Positions 2 through 20,000 of a stretch of 20,000 nt of DNA are shown piece after piece. Both the position numbers and the translations under genes were made by a program. The stretch lies in IMG/VR virus record IMGVR_UViG_3300029787_000026. One strand, 5' to 3'. The notes beneath the pieces are model-generated. The model saw nothing but the letters and a program-made list of their open reading frames with translations. It did not search any database and was not told the DNA's origin. Each line of letters starts with the position of its first letter. Position 1 is the stretch's first letter. This DNA comes from an uncultured virus (IMG/VR IMGVR_UViG_3300029787_000026). Its lineage: Duplodnaviria; Heunggongvirae; Uroviricota; Caudoviricetes; Crassvirales.

Positions 2-2968
2 GGTAGAAAAATAATGAATGATTATCAGGGTATTATATCATTTAAAAAGTTTTTAAACGTTATAGATAAATTAGGTGGCACAACTAACACGGCTGGTTTG
101 TCTCGTATGGTATTAGATTTAAAAGAGTTAAAAGATTATGTAACTGTTGAGAGTGACTTTAAACAAACACTTTATGATAAGTTGATGCAGCAGAACGCGC
201 AAAAACTAGGTCAATCAGTTAGAAAACTAGAATCACCACAACTACAAGATGCTATGGCTAGGATGGGACTAGAGCCAAGCAAACCAAATGTTGAAATAGC
301 TAAATATGAGTTAGCAAACCCTAAACAAACTAAACAGTCATACGAATCTAATAAAGCTTTAGCTAAAAAGTCAGGCACTTTATCTCAAGTTGATCTTAGT
401 AAATCTGAATTACTAAACAACATGTCTAACAGGGATAAAGCTTTAGCTTTAGCTAGAAGGTTAAAGAAAGAAACTAAGGGTATAAGTGTATACGATTTCG
501 ATGATACACTTGCTAAGTCTAAATCTAACGTGCTTTACACGCTCCCTAATGGTAAGAGAGGTAAACTTAATGCTACGGAGTTTGCTAAACGTTCAGAGGC
601 CTTAGAAGCTCAAGGAGCAAAATTTGATTTTTCTGAGTTTAACAGAGTAATTGACGGGAAACCCGGGCCTCTAGTTCCTAGAATTAAAAAAGCTATAGGA
701 AAATTTGGTAATGAAAATATGTTTGTGTTAACAGCAAGACCTCAAGCGTCAGCTAATGCTATTCATAAGTTTTTAAAAGGAATAGGTATTGACATACCTC
801 TTAAAAATATTACTGGTTTAGAAAACGGTAGCCCAACAGCAAAGTCAAATTGGATATTAGATAAAGCTGCTAAAGGTTATAATGATTTTTATTTTGTAGA
901 TGACGCTGTAAAAAACGTTAAAGCTGTTAAAGCTGTTTTAGATGTTATAGATGTTAAGAGTAAAGTTCAACTAGCTTTACAACAAGTTGATCTAAACAAA
1001 ACGTTTAACGAAATAATACAAAACAAATCAGGCATCGGCGCTGATAAAGTATTTGGTAGAGCAAAAGCTGAGGTTGTAGGTAGAGGTAAAGGTAAGTTTG
1101 ATTACATCGTTTCTCCTGGTGCTGAAGATTTTATGGGATTACTTTATAAAACATTAGGTAAAGGTAAGGTAGGAGAAAAACAACAAGCATTTTATAAAAA
1201 ATACTTAAATGATCCTTTTGCTAAAGCAGAAGAAATGATTTCTAAAGATCAAGTTAAGCTAGCACAAGATATTAAAGCTTTGAAAAAGAGTTTAGGTGTT
1301 GTACCTAAAAACCTTAAAAAGACTAATGATACTGGCTTTACAAATGAAACAGCAGTAAGAGTTAGAATGTGGACTAAAATGGGACTTGAAGTTCCCGGGT
1401 TAAGTAAAGCAGATTTAAAAGATTTAAATAAATTAGTTAAAGATAATCCTAAGCTTGAAGCGTTTGCAGATCAGTTATTATTAGCTACTAAAAACTCTGG
1501 TTGGGCACCACCTAAAGCTGATTGGCTTAGTGGTAACTTAACTTTAGATGCTAGAAATTTATTAAGAGATGTAAAGAGATCTGAATATCTAGAACAATAT
1601 GGTTGGACAGAAAATGTTAATCAAATATTTAGTGAAGCAAATTTAAATAAACTTGAAGCTGCTTTTGGTAAGAGTTATAGAAATGCTTTAGAAGGTACTA
1701 TAGCTAGAATGAAGACTGGTAGAAATAGAAAAGTAAGAAACAATTTAGAAAATAAAGTACTTGACTATATTAATAATTCTGTAGGTGCTATCATGTTCTT
1801 AAACACTAGGTCCGCTGTGTTACAAACAATATCCTCTATTAACTTCGTTAACTGGACAGATAATAATCCCATGGCTGCTGGTAAGGCTTTAGCTAATATG
1901 CCTCAATATTCTAAAGACTTTTTAAAGCTAATGAATTCTGATTATCTTCTTTCTAGACGAAATGGTTTAAAATTAAATATATCAGAATCTGAAATAGCTG
2001 ATGCTGGCGGTGGTAGAGGACTTATTAACTACATGTTAAATAAAGGTTTTGTATTTACAAGATACGCTGATAGTTTTGCTATTGCTAGTGGTGGTGCTAC
2101 GTTTTATAGAAATAGATTAAACACTTATAAGAAAAAAGGTTTATCTGAAAAAGAAGCAGAGGCAAGAGCTTTTAGGGATTTTAGAGAAATAGCTGAGAAC
2201 TCCCAACAGTCAAGTAGAACTGATAAAATTAGTCAACAACAAGCTAGTGATTTAGGTAGGGTTATATTAGCTTTTGCTAACACACCTATGCAGTATATGA
2301 GAATACAAAAGAAAGCTTATTTGGATTTAGTAAACGGTAGGGGTAATTGGAAAACAAATGCTTCTAAAATAGTTTACTATGGATTTATACAAAACCTTAT
2401 GTTCAACGCTATACAAAACGCTATGTTTGGTATTGCGTTTGGTGATGATGAAACAGACGATAAGCTAATGGCTAAGTCTGGTAGAGTTGCTAATGGTATG
2501 GCTGACTCATTATTAAGAGGTATGGGATTATACGGTGCTACAGCATCTATGGTTAAAAACACATTAATGAAAATAAAACAAATACAGGAAAAAGACGGGA
2601 AGAAAGCTTATGATGCAGCGATATTTGAAGTGTTAAACGTATCACCTACAATAGGTTCAAAAGCAAGAAAATTAAGAAGCGCTGCTATATCCGCAGAGTA
2701 TGGAGCGTTTGATGACATGGAGTTTAGTTTAGATAACGAAGCTTATATGGCATTAGCAAATATAATATCTGCAACCACAAATGTACCTATGGACAGAGCT
2801 TTAAGAAAAGCTCAGAATATAGATGGAGCATTGTTTGACGATGTGGAAATGTGGCAAAGAATCTCTATGCTCATGGGTTACCAAGACTGGGAACTTGGTA
2901 TAGGTAGAGATACAACGGGGAATAAAAAGAAGAAAAAATCAGTCCAAAATATAGACGAATGGGAATAA
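2..2968 (+). CDS. C-terminal part (at least 988 aa) of a very large phage protein, probably virion-internal/ejected polyvalent protein, with an embedded HAD-superfamily phosphatase domain
   Basis: The frame is open to the window edge (GGT AGA AAA ATA before the ATG at 14), so the gene is 5'-truncated. HAD motifs: I SVYDFDDTL (about 485-511), II FVLTARP, III conserved K (PTAKSNW), IV FYFVDD. The remainder is helical Ala/Gly/Lys-rich sequence typical of large phage internal proteins. The virion role is inference. Confidence 0.7.
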   Translation, partial: GRKIMNDYQGIISFKKFLNVIDKLGGTTNTAGLSRMVLDLKELKDYVTVESDFKQTLYDKLMQQNAQKLGQSVRKLESPQLQDAMARMGLEPSKPNVEIAKYELANPKQTKQSYESNKALAKKSGTLSQVDLSKSELLNNMSNRDKALALARRLKKETKGISVYDFDDTLAKSKSNVLYTLPNGKRGKLNATEFAKRSEALEAQGAKFDFSEFNRVIDGKPGPLVPRIKKAIGKFGNENMFVLTARPQASANAIHKFLKGIGIDIPLKNITGLENGSPTAKSNWILDKAAKGYNDFYFVDDAVKNVKAVKAVLDVIDVKSKVQLALQQVDLNKTFNEIIQNKSGIGADKVFGRAKAEVVGRGKGKFDYIVSPGAEDFMGLLYKTLGKGKVGEKQQAFYKKYLNDPFAKAEEMISKDQVKLAQDIKALKKSLGVVPKNLKKTNDTGFTNETAVRVRMWTKMGLEVPGLSKADLKDLNKLVKDNPKLEAFADQLLLATKNSGWAPPKADWLSGNLTLDARNLLRDVKRSEYLEQYGWTENVNQIFSEANLNKLEAAFGKSYRNALEGTIARMKTGRNRKVRNNLENKVLDYINNSVGAIMFLNTRSAVLQTISSINFVNWTDNNPMAAGKALANMPQYSKDFLKLMNSDYLLSRRNGLKLNISESEIADAGGGRGLINYMLNKGFVFTRYADSFAIASGGATFYRNRLNTYKKKGLSEKEAEARAFRDFREIAENSQQSSRTDKISQQQASDLGRVILAFANTPMQYMRIQKKAYLDLVNGRGNWKTNASKIVYYGFIQNLMFNAIQNAMFGIAFGDDETDDKLMAKSGRVANGMADSLLRGMGLYGATASMVKNTLMKIKQIQEKDGKKAYDAAIFEVLNVSPTIGSKARKLRSAAISAEYGAFDDMEFSLDNEAYMALANIISATTNVPMDRALRKAQNIDGALFDDVEMWQRISMLMGYQDWELGIGRDTTGNKKKKKSVQNIDEWE

Positions 2969-17831: not shown

Positions 17832-17905
17832 GTGCGCCAGCAGGATTCGAACCTGCGACCTCTAGGTTATGAGCCTAGCGAGCTGACCAACTGCTCCACA
17901 GCGCA
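17832..17905 (-). tRNA. tRNA-Met(CAT), initiator-like, atypical
   Basis: Cloverleaf TGCGCTG-TG-GAGC AGTTGGTCA GCTC-G-CTAGG CTCATAA CCTAG-AGGTC-GCAGG TTCGAAT CCTGC-TGGCGCA-C; no encoded CCA. Confidence 0.9.
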
Positions 17906-18589: not shown

Positions 18590-18822
18590 TTTTTTATAAT
18601 ATTATCACCGTACATAAAAGAGTAAGCTTCTAGTTCCCAGCTATTTAGTTCGCTGTAACTAATCAAATCTCTAATATCGTCGATAGTTAGTTCATACCAC
18701 ATAGTTTTTGACATTAGTGTGTATTTTAATCTTTTTGCACTGCTGTACTCTCTAGCACTAGCTTGCAAAGCTTTTTTAACGTCGGGCAATAAATTGTCGT
18801 AGACGGTTTTTTGTTTTGCCAT
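18586..18822 (-). CDS. hypothetical protein
   Basis: Likely start at ATG 18822 (MAKQKTV), just downstream of motif copy 2. Confidence 0.65.
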   Translation of the reverse strand: MAKQKTVYDNLLPDVKKALQASAREYSSAKRLKYTLMSKTMWYELTIDDIRDLISYSELNSWELEAYSFMYGDNIIKK

Positions 18823-18830
18823 GTTTTTAT

Positions 18831-18866
18831 TATTATTATCCAATAGATTTATTATTTTGTTTGTAA
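18831..18866 (-). promoter_or_regulatory. putative phage promoter, copy 2 (TTACAAACAAAAT-N10-TTGGATAATAATA)
   Basis: One mismatch to copies 1 and 3 in the fixed positions; same spacer length. Confidence 0.7.
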
Positions 18867-19255
18867 TTTCTTAAGTAGAATTCTAACATATAGTTTAATC
18901 TAGCAAGACCTGACCATACTTTAGCTCTAGCAATACCTTCATATATTCTAGTTTCTAGCTTACCATCGATCAAGAATGTAGTTCTTTGCTCTTGCTTATA
19001 CTGTTTGTTAAGCTGATAGTTAGATGAGCAACTGTTTTGATTTCTTACATAACCTGTTTTAAAGCAAGCTAATCTTAGTCTTTCAATATCACCTATGTAT
19101 TTAGGGTGTCTTTTTCTAGCAGGCACAGGAAATTCAAATTCTCTTGTGCCATTTTTGGCTTGTCTTTGCGTGGTAGTCTCTTTGATACCATACTCAACGA
19201 GTAACTGCCTTGCAAATGCGTTTTCTAACGCTTCTTGTTCTTGTTTCCAATTCAT
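18836..19255 (-). CDS. hypothetical protein
   Basis: 139-aa ORF beginning 15 nt after the tmRNA-like RNA. Confidence 0.7.
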   Translation of the reverse strand: MNWKQEQEALENAFARQLLVEYGIKETTTQRQAKNGTREFEFPVPARKRHPKYIGDIERLRLACFKTGYVRNQNSCSSNYQLNKQYKQEQRTTFLIDGKLETRIYEGIARAKVWSGLARLNYMLEFYLRNYKQNNKSIG

Positions 19256-19269
19256 ATTTATTAATTTAG

Positions 19270-19372
19270 TGGACGTGGCAGGAATCGAACCTGCGTTACA
19301 ACATACTCGTACGTTTTTCGGTCAAGTTACAGCATCACACTCATGCCTATGTTGTCTAACCATTTCACGCCC
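19270..19372 (-). ncRNA. mini tmRNA-like RNA (tRNA-like domain only, Ala identity)
   Basis: GGGCGTG/CACGTCC acceptor with G3-U70 and A73; stemless D-loop AAATGGTTAG; 8-bp helix ACAACATA/TATGTTGT; 3-nt AAC linker; T-arm GCAGG-TTCGATT-CCTGC; only 42 nt enclosed. Confidence 0.75.
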
Positions 19373-19376
19373 ATAA

Positions 19377-19629
19377 GGCAGCAGTTGCGGACTGGTAGTT
19401 AACTAGTATTGTCATTTATCCGCTCTTTCTGTTTTGTACGCATCGAGCCGATCATTGTCGCCTTTAATTGTACTAACGTGACCAGTATGCCGCCGCCAAA
19501 CCGCTTCACAACCGTGCACTACTATTTCAAGCTGTGGTTGTTCTTCACGTATGCTAGCTATTCACTTATGTGTAATTCCAGAGGCAGGAACTTACTGACC
19601 TTGATTTACCTATTAAGCTACTCGTCTAG
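19377..19629 (-). ncRNA. putative structured non-coding RNA
   Basis: About 250 nt without a credible ORF, visibly higher GC than flanks, several complementary pairs (see findings). Confidence 0.45.
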
Positions 19630-19824
19630 CTATTTACGCCGCCAAGCTCTGTGCACTGATGCACTTACTTCTTGACTGACGATTTGTATTGTATTACCGG
19701 TTTTATGCTCAATAATTGGTACATAACTGTACGTTTGGGTTGTTGAGCAAGACACACAAGTTTTGTAGCCCATATCTAATCGCAACTGTGGTATTTTTAC
19801 ACCGGGTTTACATTTACAATACAT
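19630..19824 (-). CDS. small Zn-finger-like protein (CxC...CxxC)
   Basis: MYCKC..IPQLRL..GYKTCVSCS, reminiscent of the DksA/TraR C4 finger spacing. Confidence 0.6.
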   Translation of the reverse strand: MYCKCKPGVKIPQLRLDMGYKTCVSCSTTQTYSYVPIIEHKTGNTIQIVSQEVSASVHRAWRRK

Positions 19825-19834
19825 AGTTTGTTTA

Positions 19835-19870
19835 TATTATTATCCAAAAGATAATTTATTTTGTCTGTAA
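19835..19870 (-). promoter_or_regulatory. putative phage promoter, copy 3 (TTACAGACAAAAT-N10-TTGGATAATAATA)
   Basis: Same motif, ending 10 nt before ATG 19824. Confidence 0.7.
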
Positions 19871-19999
19871 TAATTTATTGAGTGCAACATTTATTACATA
19901 TTCTTTCATTTCCTGATAGTCATCACCTTCAAGAGGTTGGTCAGCTAGTTGCCAATCAACACTGTCTTCAATGATTTCTTTCATATGATCCGCTACACC
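19856..19999 (-). CDS. 3' end of an acidic hypothetical protein, truncated by the window
   Basis: GVADHMKEIIEDSVDWQLADQPLEGDDYQEMKEYVINVALNKLLQTK*. Confidence 0.55.
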   Translation of the reverse strand, partial: GVADHMKEIIEDSVDWQLADQPLEGDDYQEMKEYVINVALNKLLQTK

Positions 20000-20000
20000 C

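Follow-up and report, generated by a model that had tools for sequence, protein, structure and literature searches.

We analyzed a 20,000-nucleotide (nt) stretch of DNA from an uncultured virus of the Crassvirales (IMG/VR record IMGVR_UViG_3300029787_000026), referred to here at its full length as the window. Its minus strand from 19372 to 19270 is a genuine, conserved gene for a tag-less RNA related to transfer-messenger RNA (tmRNA), which consists of the tRNA-like domain (TLD) only and belongs to an uncultured lineage of marine phages. The original prediction, made from the letters alone, had described a phage-encoded tmRNA TLD with alanine elements and no mRNA-like domain, and sequence, the Rfam tmRNA model, predicted fold, and family all support that description. 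RNAs of this kind are already described from one phage and from organelles; the lineage adds a large and well-supported family.

The 103-nt RNA consists of segments of 7, 10, 8, 42, 8, 3, 5, 7, 5, 7, and 1 nt. They read, from 5′ to 3′, GGGCGTG, AAATGGTTAG, ACAACATA, a 42-nt insert, TATGTTGT, AAC, GCAGG-TTCGATT-CCTGC, CACGTCC, and A, followed by CTA, exactly as they had been parsed. Seven acceptor pairs, including G3:U70, and the discriminator A73 are present, and there is neither a D stem nor an anticodon arm. In the minimum-energy fold (−31.7 kcal/mol; z = −2.37; 2 of 200 shuffles equally good), acceptor and T arm are retained along with a P2-like helix of 8 bp (7 + 1), and two hairpins appear within the insert, at RNA positions 26 to 42 and 46 to 68. 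Only one small hairpin had been seen there before; the insert proved to be two plain hairpins, both with compensatory changes in relatives (for hairpin 2, a joint alignment has both-side changes at two of four predicted pairs). Neither fold nor alignment gave any of the pseudoknots PK1 to PK4 in the 42-nt insert between the P2 strands.

The features that mark a tmRNA TLD, namely, a 7-bp acceptor with G3:U70, a discriminator A, a stemless D-loop with GG, and a 5-bp T arm, are all found in this RNA. The Rfam tmRNA model RF00023, run in E-value mode, matched it over model positions 1 to 374, of which 292 in the center were deleted (41.0 bits; E = 4.6e-15 for 501 bases searched), the best match in the clan. 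No mRNA-like domain with a resume codon and a stop-ended tag frame was found by this model, in which the 292 deleted positions lie, or by ARAGORN, which reported no tag. The 103-nt RNA also lacks the D stem and the anticodon arm with 7-nt loop of a canonical tRNA (RF00005). It has a complete TLD and a P2 closed after a few pairs, lacks a coding region, and lies in a phage genome, the features of the "TLD only" type known from Mycobacterium phage DS6A.

Two candidate tag sequences were considered and rejected. The insert had been said to hold at most trivial frames, and this held up: only 2 of 10 insert copies have a stop at the end of the frame GCT GTA ACT TGA, the others having CGA there, and no tag frame is conserved. 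Upstream of the gene, the Rfam model for permuted tmRNA gave a weak match at 19374 to 19513 on the minus strand (14.6 bits; E = 0.78), within which lies much of a structured element that we call unit A. By eye, the 3′ part of unit A loosely resembles the tag region of Bacteroidota tmRNAs, with one frame reading ...NYQSATAALWA. The frames in unit A are not conserved (an indel of 1 nt sets the L008 type apart, and the stop is missing in L049), and a cut by RNase P at G1 would part the two pieces; a functional tag upstream was rejected on both counts. Possibly, the 3′ part of unit A is left over from an mRNA-like domain that has been lost.

The gene is conserved far beyond chance, in 85 copies with one architecture. 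From 72 aligned distinct copies we built a covariance model, R1, in which six P2 pairs are modeled along with the acceptor and the T arm. An R1 search (77 sources; E ≤ 1e-7) gave the 85 copies in related uncultured phage contigs, 78 of them distinct and all 68 to 149 nt long; the 103-nt RNA itself scored 85.2 bits (E = 8.9e-17). Simple sequence searches led to the same family. The 3′-terminal 25-mer occurred in 60 IMG/VR stretches (one contig matched at both ends) that hold 53 distinct RNAs, and the complementary 5′ strand lay 68 to 149 nt upstream in all 60. The 5′-terminal 17-mer occurred in 37 stretches, 28 with the same 3′ end and 9 with small T-loop, T-stem, or single acceptor-pair variants. 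When acceptor and T stem were left free, the pattern matched 43 stretches: 18 with the same acceptor, 1 with a variant (L195), 5 with a different tRNA-like unit whose acceptor is A/U-rich, and 19 with ordinary tRNAs or other sequences. A blastn comparison with 50,697 phage records, for which positions 18800 to 20000 and also the RNA by itself served as queries, found no family member among cultured relatives.

A scan of a genome collection returned 83 stretches, mostly tRNA-Ala genes with the same acceptor stem, 3′ halves at attachment (att) sites, and true tmRNAs. Seven family members on contigs of metagenome-assembled genomes (MAGs) were among them, and for six of these the flanking open reading frames (ORFs) match the phage group. 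Two TLD-only-like RNAs with the acceptor GGGCGTG/CACGTCC were also observed on MAG contigs, a 79-nt RNA of 70% G+C from an actinomycete (L103:1444-1522, plus strand; R1, 48.6 bits) and a 147-nt RNA from an Anaerovoracaceae MAG (L155:1502-1648, minus strand; 48.2 bits). Other viral contigs (L184, L196, L200, L215, and L220) carry a tRNA-like unit of ~81 nt with an A/U-rich acceptor (A3:U70), in which the D-loop AAATGGTTAG and T arm of the family recur, as does its ACTA end; this unit scored 29.9 bits against R1.

The stems covary in relatives, as the original prediction had asked to see: all six P2 pairs do so, and the TLD core is near-invariant. In the model-fitted alignment, which by its nature leans towards structure, 95.3% of pair cells were standard, compared with 80.9% in shuffles, and none of 500 shuffles reached the observed value. 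Sliding the 3′ partners by 1 to 3 columns lowered the paired cells to 30 to 54%. P2 showed both-side changes in all six modeled pairs. All seven acceptor pairs were 100% paired in the 78 distinct copies, with both-side changes at three of the seven, and the T stem had both-side changes in three of five pairs; in both of these stems the changes come from rare variants. In the D-loop, across 72 aligned sequences, G12 never varies, and conservation is at least 90% at A8, A9, T11, G13, A16, and G17. A free-register test of P2 proved too permissive, with at least 5 bp found for own partners in 63 of 72 copies and for swapped partners in 50%, and was replaced by the model-based count.

These results bear on whether the RNA might be a decaying remnant of a full phage tmRNA, an att-site fragment, or an assembly artifact. 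A Balneola MAG contig of 52.7 kb encodes a 305-nt tmRNA (L169:1218-1523, plus strand; tag GKNNILPLFGGAGVKAAA followed by a stop) that shares the acceptor stem and the CTA trailer of the mini family and may be a phage-borne full tmRNA, and many tRNA-Ala 3′ halves at att sites carry the same 3′ sequence. The T stem and T loop of the L169 tmRNA differ, however, from those of the family. It was tried as a full-length tmRNA at the same spot in a sister phage, together with L124, and both were rejected, since these contigs share no flanking ORF with the group. Relatives with a full-length tmRNA at this place, which had been named as what would overturn the prediction, were not found: none of the 85 copies exceeds 149 nt, and the five genomes rated 99 to 100% complete each hold exactly one copy (5 of 5), no full tmRNA over the Rfam cutoff (0 of 5), and no SmpB gene (0 of 5). 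Both halves of the TLD are present and perfectly paired in 78 distinct copies, and the same sequence occurs in independent DNA and RNA runs, which argues against an artifact. Family search, covariation, and complete genomes thus leave the idea of a remnant or artifact scarcely credible and effectively refuted.

Table 1. Positions of the RNA gene, its parts, and two neighboring structured units in the window
Feature	Positions	Strand	Remarks
Whole TLD-only tmRNA-like RNA gene	19270..19372	-	G1 at 19372; discriminator A103 (A73 in tRNA numbering) at 19270
Acceptor, 5′ strand, GGGCGTG	19366..19372	-	G3 at 19370; partner, 19271-19277
Stemless D-loop analogue, AAATGGTTAG	19356..19365	-	Conserved; shaped like the D-loops of two Bacteroidota MAG tmRNAs
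P2-like helix, 5′ strand (RNA positions 18-24)	19349..19355	-	From the fold; both-side changes in the family
Inner hairpin 1, GGCAT/7-nt loop/ATGCT	19331..19347	-	Compensatory forms GGTAT/ATACT and GGCAC/GTGCT
Inner hairpin 2, stem 46-50 with 64-68, 13-nt A-rich loop	19305..19327	-	From the fold
P2-like helix, 3′ strand (RNA positions 69-75)	19298..19304	-	From the fold and family alignments
Linker AAC (3 nt) preceding T arm	19295..19297	-	A76, A77, and C78 each at least 90% conserved
T arm, GCAGG-TTCGATT-CCTGC	19278..19294	-	100% paired in relatives
Acceptor, 3′ strand, CACGTCC, plus discriminator A73	19270..19277	-	U70 at 19273; A73 at 19270
3′ trailer, CTA	19267..19269	-	CCA not encoded; would need completion after trimming
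Unit A	19373..19494	-	Outer 7-bp helix GGCGGCA/TGCTGCC; insert slot after CGTTAG; hairpin GCGGA/TCCGC
M1, third scaffold	19553..19629	-	Directly after the stop of the zinc-ribbon ORF; conserved ends, variable insert

The elements by which alanyl-tRNA synthetase recognizes its substrates are retained across the family. Conservation of G3-U70 and A73 had been proposed as a check, and each is present in 75 of the 78 distinct relatives; the 3:70 pair is otherwise G:C in two copies and A:U in one. In L195 (GGGTGCG/CGCATCC) G3:U70 is retained though pairs 4:69 and 6:67 have changed on both sides, and the same holds for the second copy of L054 (GGGAGTG/CACTTCC), in which 4:69 has changed on both sides. 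Some phages carry two TLDs or paralogous units, and a genome may hold as many as two copies. In L174, the closest relative of the window, a second TLD (1263-1350, plus strand) with the same acceptor and with CCA encoded after the discriminator lies ~70 nt upstream of the main copy. A second TLD-like type (L042:1420-1510, L055:1310-1403, and L060:105-198, all on the minus strand) lacks alanine identity; it has A1:U72, a discriminator U, a CTA trailer, and, at 3:70, G:C in two copies and G:U in one. Smaller still are 40-nt minis without P2 (L037:1328-1367, minus strand; L058:4594-4633 and L001:4572-4611, plus strand). The acceptor of these minis is 6 bp long; besides it they have a D-loop-like bulge and a T arm, and CTA follows. 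Their 3:70 pair is G:U in L037 and A:U in L058, and the L001 copy scores identically.

The trailer CTA follows the discriminator in 72 of the 78 distinct copies. It also follows 18 of 20 distinct canonical tRNA genes (Met and Gln) of the same loci, including the tRNA-Met of the window, and the RNA thus carries the 3′ context of the real tRNAs of this phage group. In some relatives the gene lies near tRNA-Met, at 12 nt in L005, ~90 nt in L049, and ~120 nt in L025. One of the two Bacteroidota MAG tmRNA genes that we compared (L224 and L226) likewise has no encoded CCA and has the trailer CTT.

TLD-only RNAs have precedents in print. Hudson, Lau and Williams (2014), in the part of their paper accessible to us, list "Mycobacterium phage DS6A (TLD only)," cite Mao et al. 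(2009), and state that E. coli tmRNA is strongly inhibited by a TLD-like molecule, whether or not this can be charged, perhaps because SmpB is titrated (PMC4131195); the accessible text of a 2025 tmRNA database paper repeats the DS6A and inhibition point (PMC11915505). The belief behind the original prediction that tag-less tmRNAs exist only in mitochondria is therefore wrong, and its functional idea had already been published. The DS6A RNA (JN698994.1, ~28478-28557) has the same architecture and matched R1 at 39.1 bits (E = 4.3e-9). Both RNAs are phage encoded and have no tag frame. In each, the 7-bp acceptor carries G3:U70 and is followed by A73, the D-loop contains GG but has no stem, a loop closes the short P2, and the T arm has 5 bp; the DS6A RNA is ~80 nt long. 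DS6A, however, is an actinophage with 70% G+C and its RNA has another acceptor sequence, whereas the RNA described here comes from a marine phage, probably of Bacteroidota, with 48% G+C. The P2 tip of the DS6A RNA is a plain short cap, in place of the exchangeable two-hairpin module seen here, and the present lineage varies between 68 and 149 nt with up to two copies per genome.

Other tRNA-shaped RNAs are more distant comparisons. One-piece tmRNAs (RF00023; L224 and L226 of Bacteroidota MAGs) share the G3:U70 acceptor, the D-loop xxUGGUUxxGAC, the T arm, and the discriminator A, whereas the mini-RNA has no resume codon, tag frame, or pseudoknots and its linker is UAAC, not GGAC. tmRNAs without a coding sequence (CDS) are reported, in the accessible portions of the sources, from jakobid mitochondria (PMC3590771) and, at ~65 bp, from Mallomonadaceae plastids (PMC11915505). 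Like the phage RNA these have no mRNA-like domain, and they are thought to act with SmpB, but they are vertically inherited and belong to other sequence lineages. The t-elements of plant mitochondria, tRNA punctuation, and the tRNA-like/pre-microRNA chimeras of murine gammaherpesvirus 68 also place a tRNA-shaped unit, beside other structured RNAs, in a transcript that is cut by host tRNA enzymes; they have no tmRNA-type D-loop or alanine identity, both of which are conserved in the phage RNA, and the analogy is functional only. We found no description of a large family of TLD-only tmRNAs in marine or Bacteroidota phages in the literature searched, which includes few subscription journals, and within it only the two tmRNA database papers (PMC4131195, PMC11915505) mention a CDS-less, mini, or truncated phage tmRNA.

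The insert, which the original prediction had treated as trivial, is instead a conserved two-hairpin module that also stands free in sister phages. The window's P2 with its hairpin pair was found five times embedded in a TLD and five times free-standing, and a joint alignment of these copies has compensatory changes at 11 of 17 predicted pairs. In L076 a free-standing copy lies four bases upstream of another TLD, and in L174 a free-standing hairpin module lies between the two TLDs. More generally, 28 of 55 distinct TLD inner domains match sequence outside any TLD (BLAST E ≤ 1e-3; 61 sequences compared). Upstream of the TLD, two further scaffolds of the noncoding island, unit A and M1, hold the same inserts, and this hypervariable island as a whole is a mosaic of recurring structured units. 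For unit A, 11 distinct copies were aligned, and 5 of 21 predicted pairs are compensatory; its small hairpin covaries to GTGGA/TCCAC, CGCGGA/TCCGCG, and CTCGGA/TCCGAG, and a pseudoknot of ACTGGT with ACCAGT is possible. M1 recurs in many islands with differing inserts. By eye, GTTAG precedes and AAC follows the insert slot in both the TLD and unit A; in M1 the slot is flanked by TTAGG or TAGG. This exchange of inserts between a TLD and other scaffolds was previously unreported and seems to be new.

As to function, we favor a role for the RNA as a competitor of host tmRNA, a reading to which we would give about an even chance on the features of the sequence. It would be cut out of a polycistronic early transcript by host tRNA-processing enzymes, with RNase P acting at G1 and with 3′ trimming and CCA completion at the A73-CUA trailer, as on the ordinary tRNA genes of the phage. 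Host alanyl-tRNA synthetase would add alanine via G3:U70 and A73. The stemless D-loop and the T arm would bind host SmpB, and EF-Tu would bind the RNA once charged. The RNA would then compete with host tmRNA for SmpB and stalled ribosomes. With no resume codon or tag frame to offer, it would let truncated infection products escape the degradation tag and would blunt host trans-translation. The tip of the P2 helix would be a tolerant site, at which this lineage places exchangeable hairpin modules.

Several observations weigh against this competitor role. In the accessible parts of the two database papers, inhibition of E. coli tmRNA did not need charging (PMC4131195, PMC11915505), so the identity elements alone do not point to a decoy. 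Paralogous units in the same phages depart from alanine identity. The phages are close kin, with flanking proteins mostly 60 to 100% identical, and the invariance of the core, G3:U70 included, could therefore largely reflect shared ancestry. Of the programs suggested for checking the prediction, ARAGORN does not call the 103-nt RNA, and the RF00023 match, which covers both ends of the gene, scores below the gathering score of 47 bits (relatives, 33.7 to 45.2 bits); ARAGORN and Rfam at gathering together give only tRNA-Met (17832-17905). Contigs from RNA libraries are no proof of transcription and show no ends. Finally, the inner domains that are common to TLDs and other scaffolds fit a carrier or processing role at least as well.

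Such a role is the main rival of the competitor reading, though a less likely one. The tRNA-like frame would serve as a processing handle and carrier scaffold that recruits RNase P and the tRNA 3′-end machinery and both stabilizes and presents the module at the P2 tip; the cuts would define the 3′ end of the upstream noncoding modules and a short leader of the next gene, with charging and SmpB binding incidental. Besides the movement of inserts among TLDs, unit A, M1, and free-standing copies, this is favored by the trailer common to tRNA genes, by the paralogous units without alanine identity (the 40-nt minis without P2 included), and by the position of the gene: copies always lie on the same strand as their neighbors, and many end 12 to 20 nt before the next start codon. 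RNase P, however, requires just an acceptor/T-arm minihelix, yet conservation reaches at least 90% at most positions of the D-loop and the AAC linker, two variants keep G3:U70 although neighboring pairs have changed on both sides, and the best database match is tmRNA, not tRNA. The conserved D-loop and the survival of G3:U70 beside changed neighbors speak for a frame that does more than signal to RNase P, and the shuffled inserts for one that does more than act as a decoy.

The retained alanine identity elements would also suit a tag-free rescuer, in which an Ala-TLD-SmpB complex accepts the nascent chain and a host hydrolase of the ArfB or Pth type releases it, so that ribosomes stalled by host RNases or defense nucleases are recycled and phage proteins are spared. 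The persistence of CDS-less tmRNAs in jakobid mitochondria (PMC3590771) and Mallomonadaceae plastids (PMC11915505), as given in the accessible text, suggests that the tag-less form can be useful in itself. We nevertheless think this unlikely: no release factor, ArfB-like, or GGQ-bearing gene was seen among the neighbors read, none of the five complete genomes has an SmpB gene, and the sole experimental statement found, in the accessible part of its source, concerns inhibition and not rescue (PMC4131195).

Aminoacyl-tRNA-dependent transferases accept acceptor/T-arm mimics. An anticodon-less alanine acceptor might in principle serve such an enzyme as a nonribosomal donor, whether for the cell wall, for lipids, or for a phage enzyme; only the identity elements and the missing anticodon speak for this. 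No such transferase was recognized among 20 window proteins compared with PHROGs and 10 compared with Pfam, and the D-loop is of the tmRNA type, which makes a donor very improbable indeed. These roles are not mutually exclusive.

If the competitor reading is true, abundant marine phages of an entire lineage use an RNA of ~100 nt to disarm or rewire the main pathway by which the host rescues ribosomes and tags proteins, an idea that has so far been based on one mycobacteriophage gene and one E. coli experiment. The family also amounts to a set of natural experiments, with the same core at 68 to 149 nt, with and without G3:U70, and in minis without P2, that could separate charging, SmpB binding, and ribosome entry. 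The swapping of inserts points to modular, recombining small structured RNAs, outside Rfam, that phages display on tRNA-like frames. Rather tentatively, the TLD, unit A, and M1 may be at least three interchangeable scaffolds in a transcribed island, each showing exchangeable cargo hairpins at a defined slot; the mini-tmRNA would then be a natural tRNA scaffold from which the cargo gains tRNA-type processing and stability, and possibly delivery to SmpB or the ribosome, with the phages shuffling small RNA effectors or decoys.

The noncoding island upstream of the RNA gene is 257 nt long and follows a 64-amino-acid (aa) zinc-ribbon ORF (19824-19630). No Rfam family was found in the islands of 20 loci at gathering thresholds, nor, besides TLDs and tRNAs, at E ≤ 0.5 in 8 loci. 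A scan of 18700 to 20000 for promoters and terminators gave counts no better than in shuffles, and a search of the 20-kb window for antisense targets of three conserved loops gave only trivial opposite-strand self-matches. In the islands of L010, L016, L009, L011, L025, L036, L072, and L013, we noticed a further T-arm unit, GAGGGTTCGATTCCCTC or GAGGTTCGAATCCTC, with C(T/C)GACG(A/G)GTA in front of it and AACTAG/CTAGTT closing it. CTAG is strikingly frequent across the island.

Contigs from RNA libraries (four runs, three studies), which cannot show transcription, ends, or levels, cover parts of this region. One contig of run X18 spans 19266 to 19436, that is, the whole TLD and part of unit A, with different flanks; within the span a single letter differs, A in place of G26, which makes a G:U pair in hairpin 1 an A:U pair. 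Contigs of another study cover 19429 to 19786 and include alternative forms in which M1 is removed or is replaced by 42 other letters (joints, 19546 to 19629/19630). Runs X15 and X16 miss 19270 to 19372 and no run covers 18800 to 19086, a lack of cover that is not in itself evidence.

The window holds a phage replication and nucleotide-metabolism module with both ribonucleotide reductase subunits, thymidylate synthase, MazG, and a primase/helicase, along with Erf, an exonuclease, a sigma factor, and DNA ligase. The DNA occurs in runs labeled marine metagenome. The primase/helicase shares 41% identity with its counterpart in Cellulophaga phage phi10:1, followed by matches in phages of other Bacteroidota; since phi10:1 is the nearest cultured relative, the host is probably a member of Bacteroidota. 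MAG labels of family contigs (Bacteroidetes, Ilumatobacteraceae, and "Aliivibrio") are mutually discordant and were not used to assign a host. All neighbors of the RNA gene share its strand, and a 139-aa ORF begins 14 nt downstream of it. On the opposite strand, at the far end of the window, a 984-aa ORF (14-2968, plus strand) has no match in PHROGs or Pfam. The 64-aa protein upstream of the island (19630-19824, minus strand) carries a CxC...CxxC zinc ribbon and occupies that position in 51 of 61 loci, with up to 100% identity; its nearest named Atlas cluster, a lead only, is a DksA/TraR-type zinc finger (0.89).

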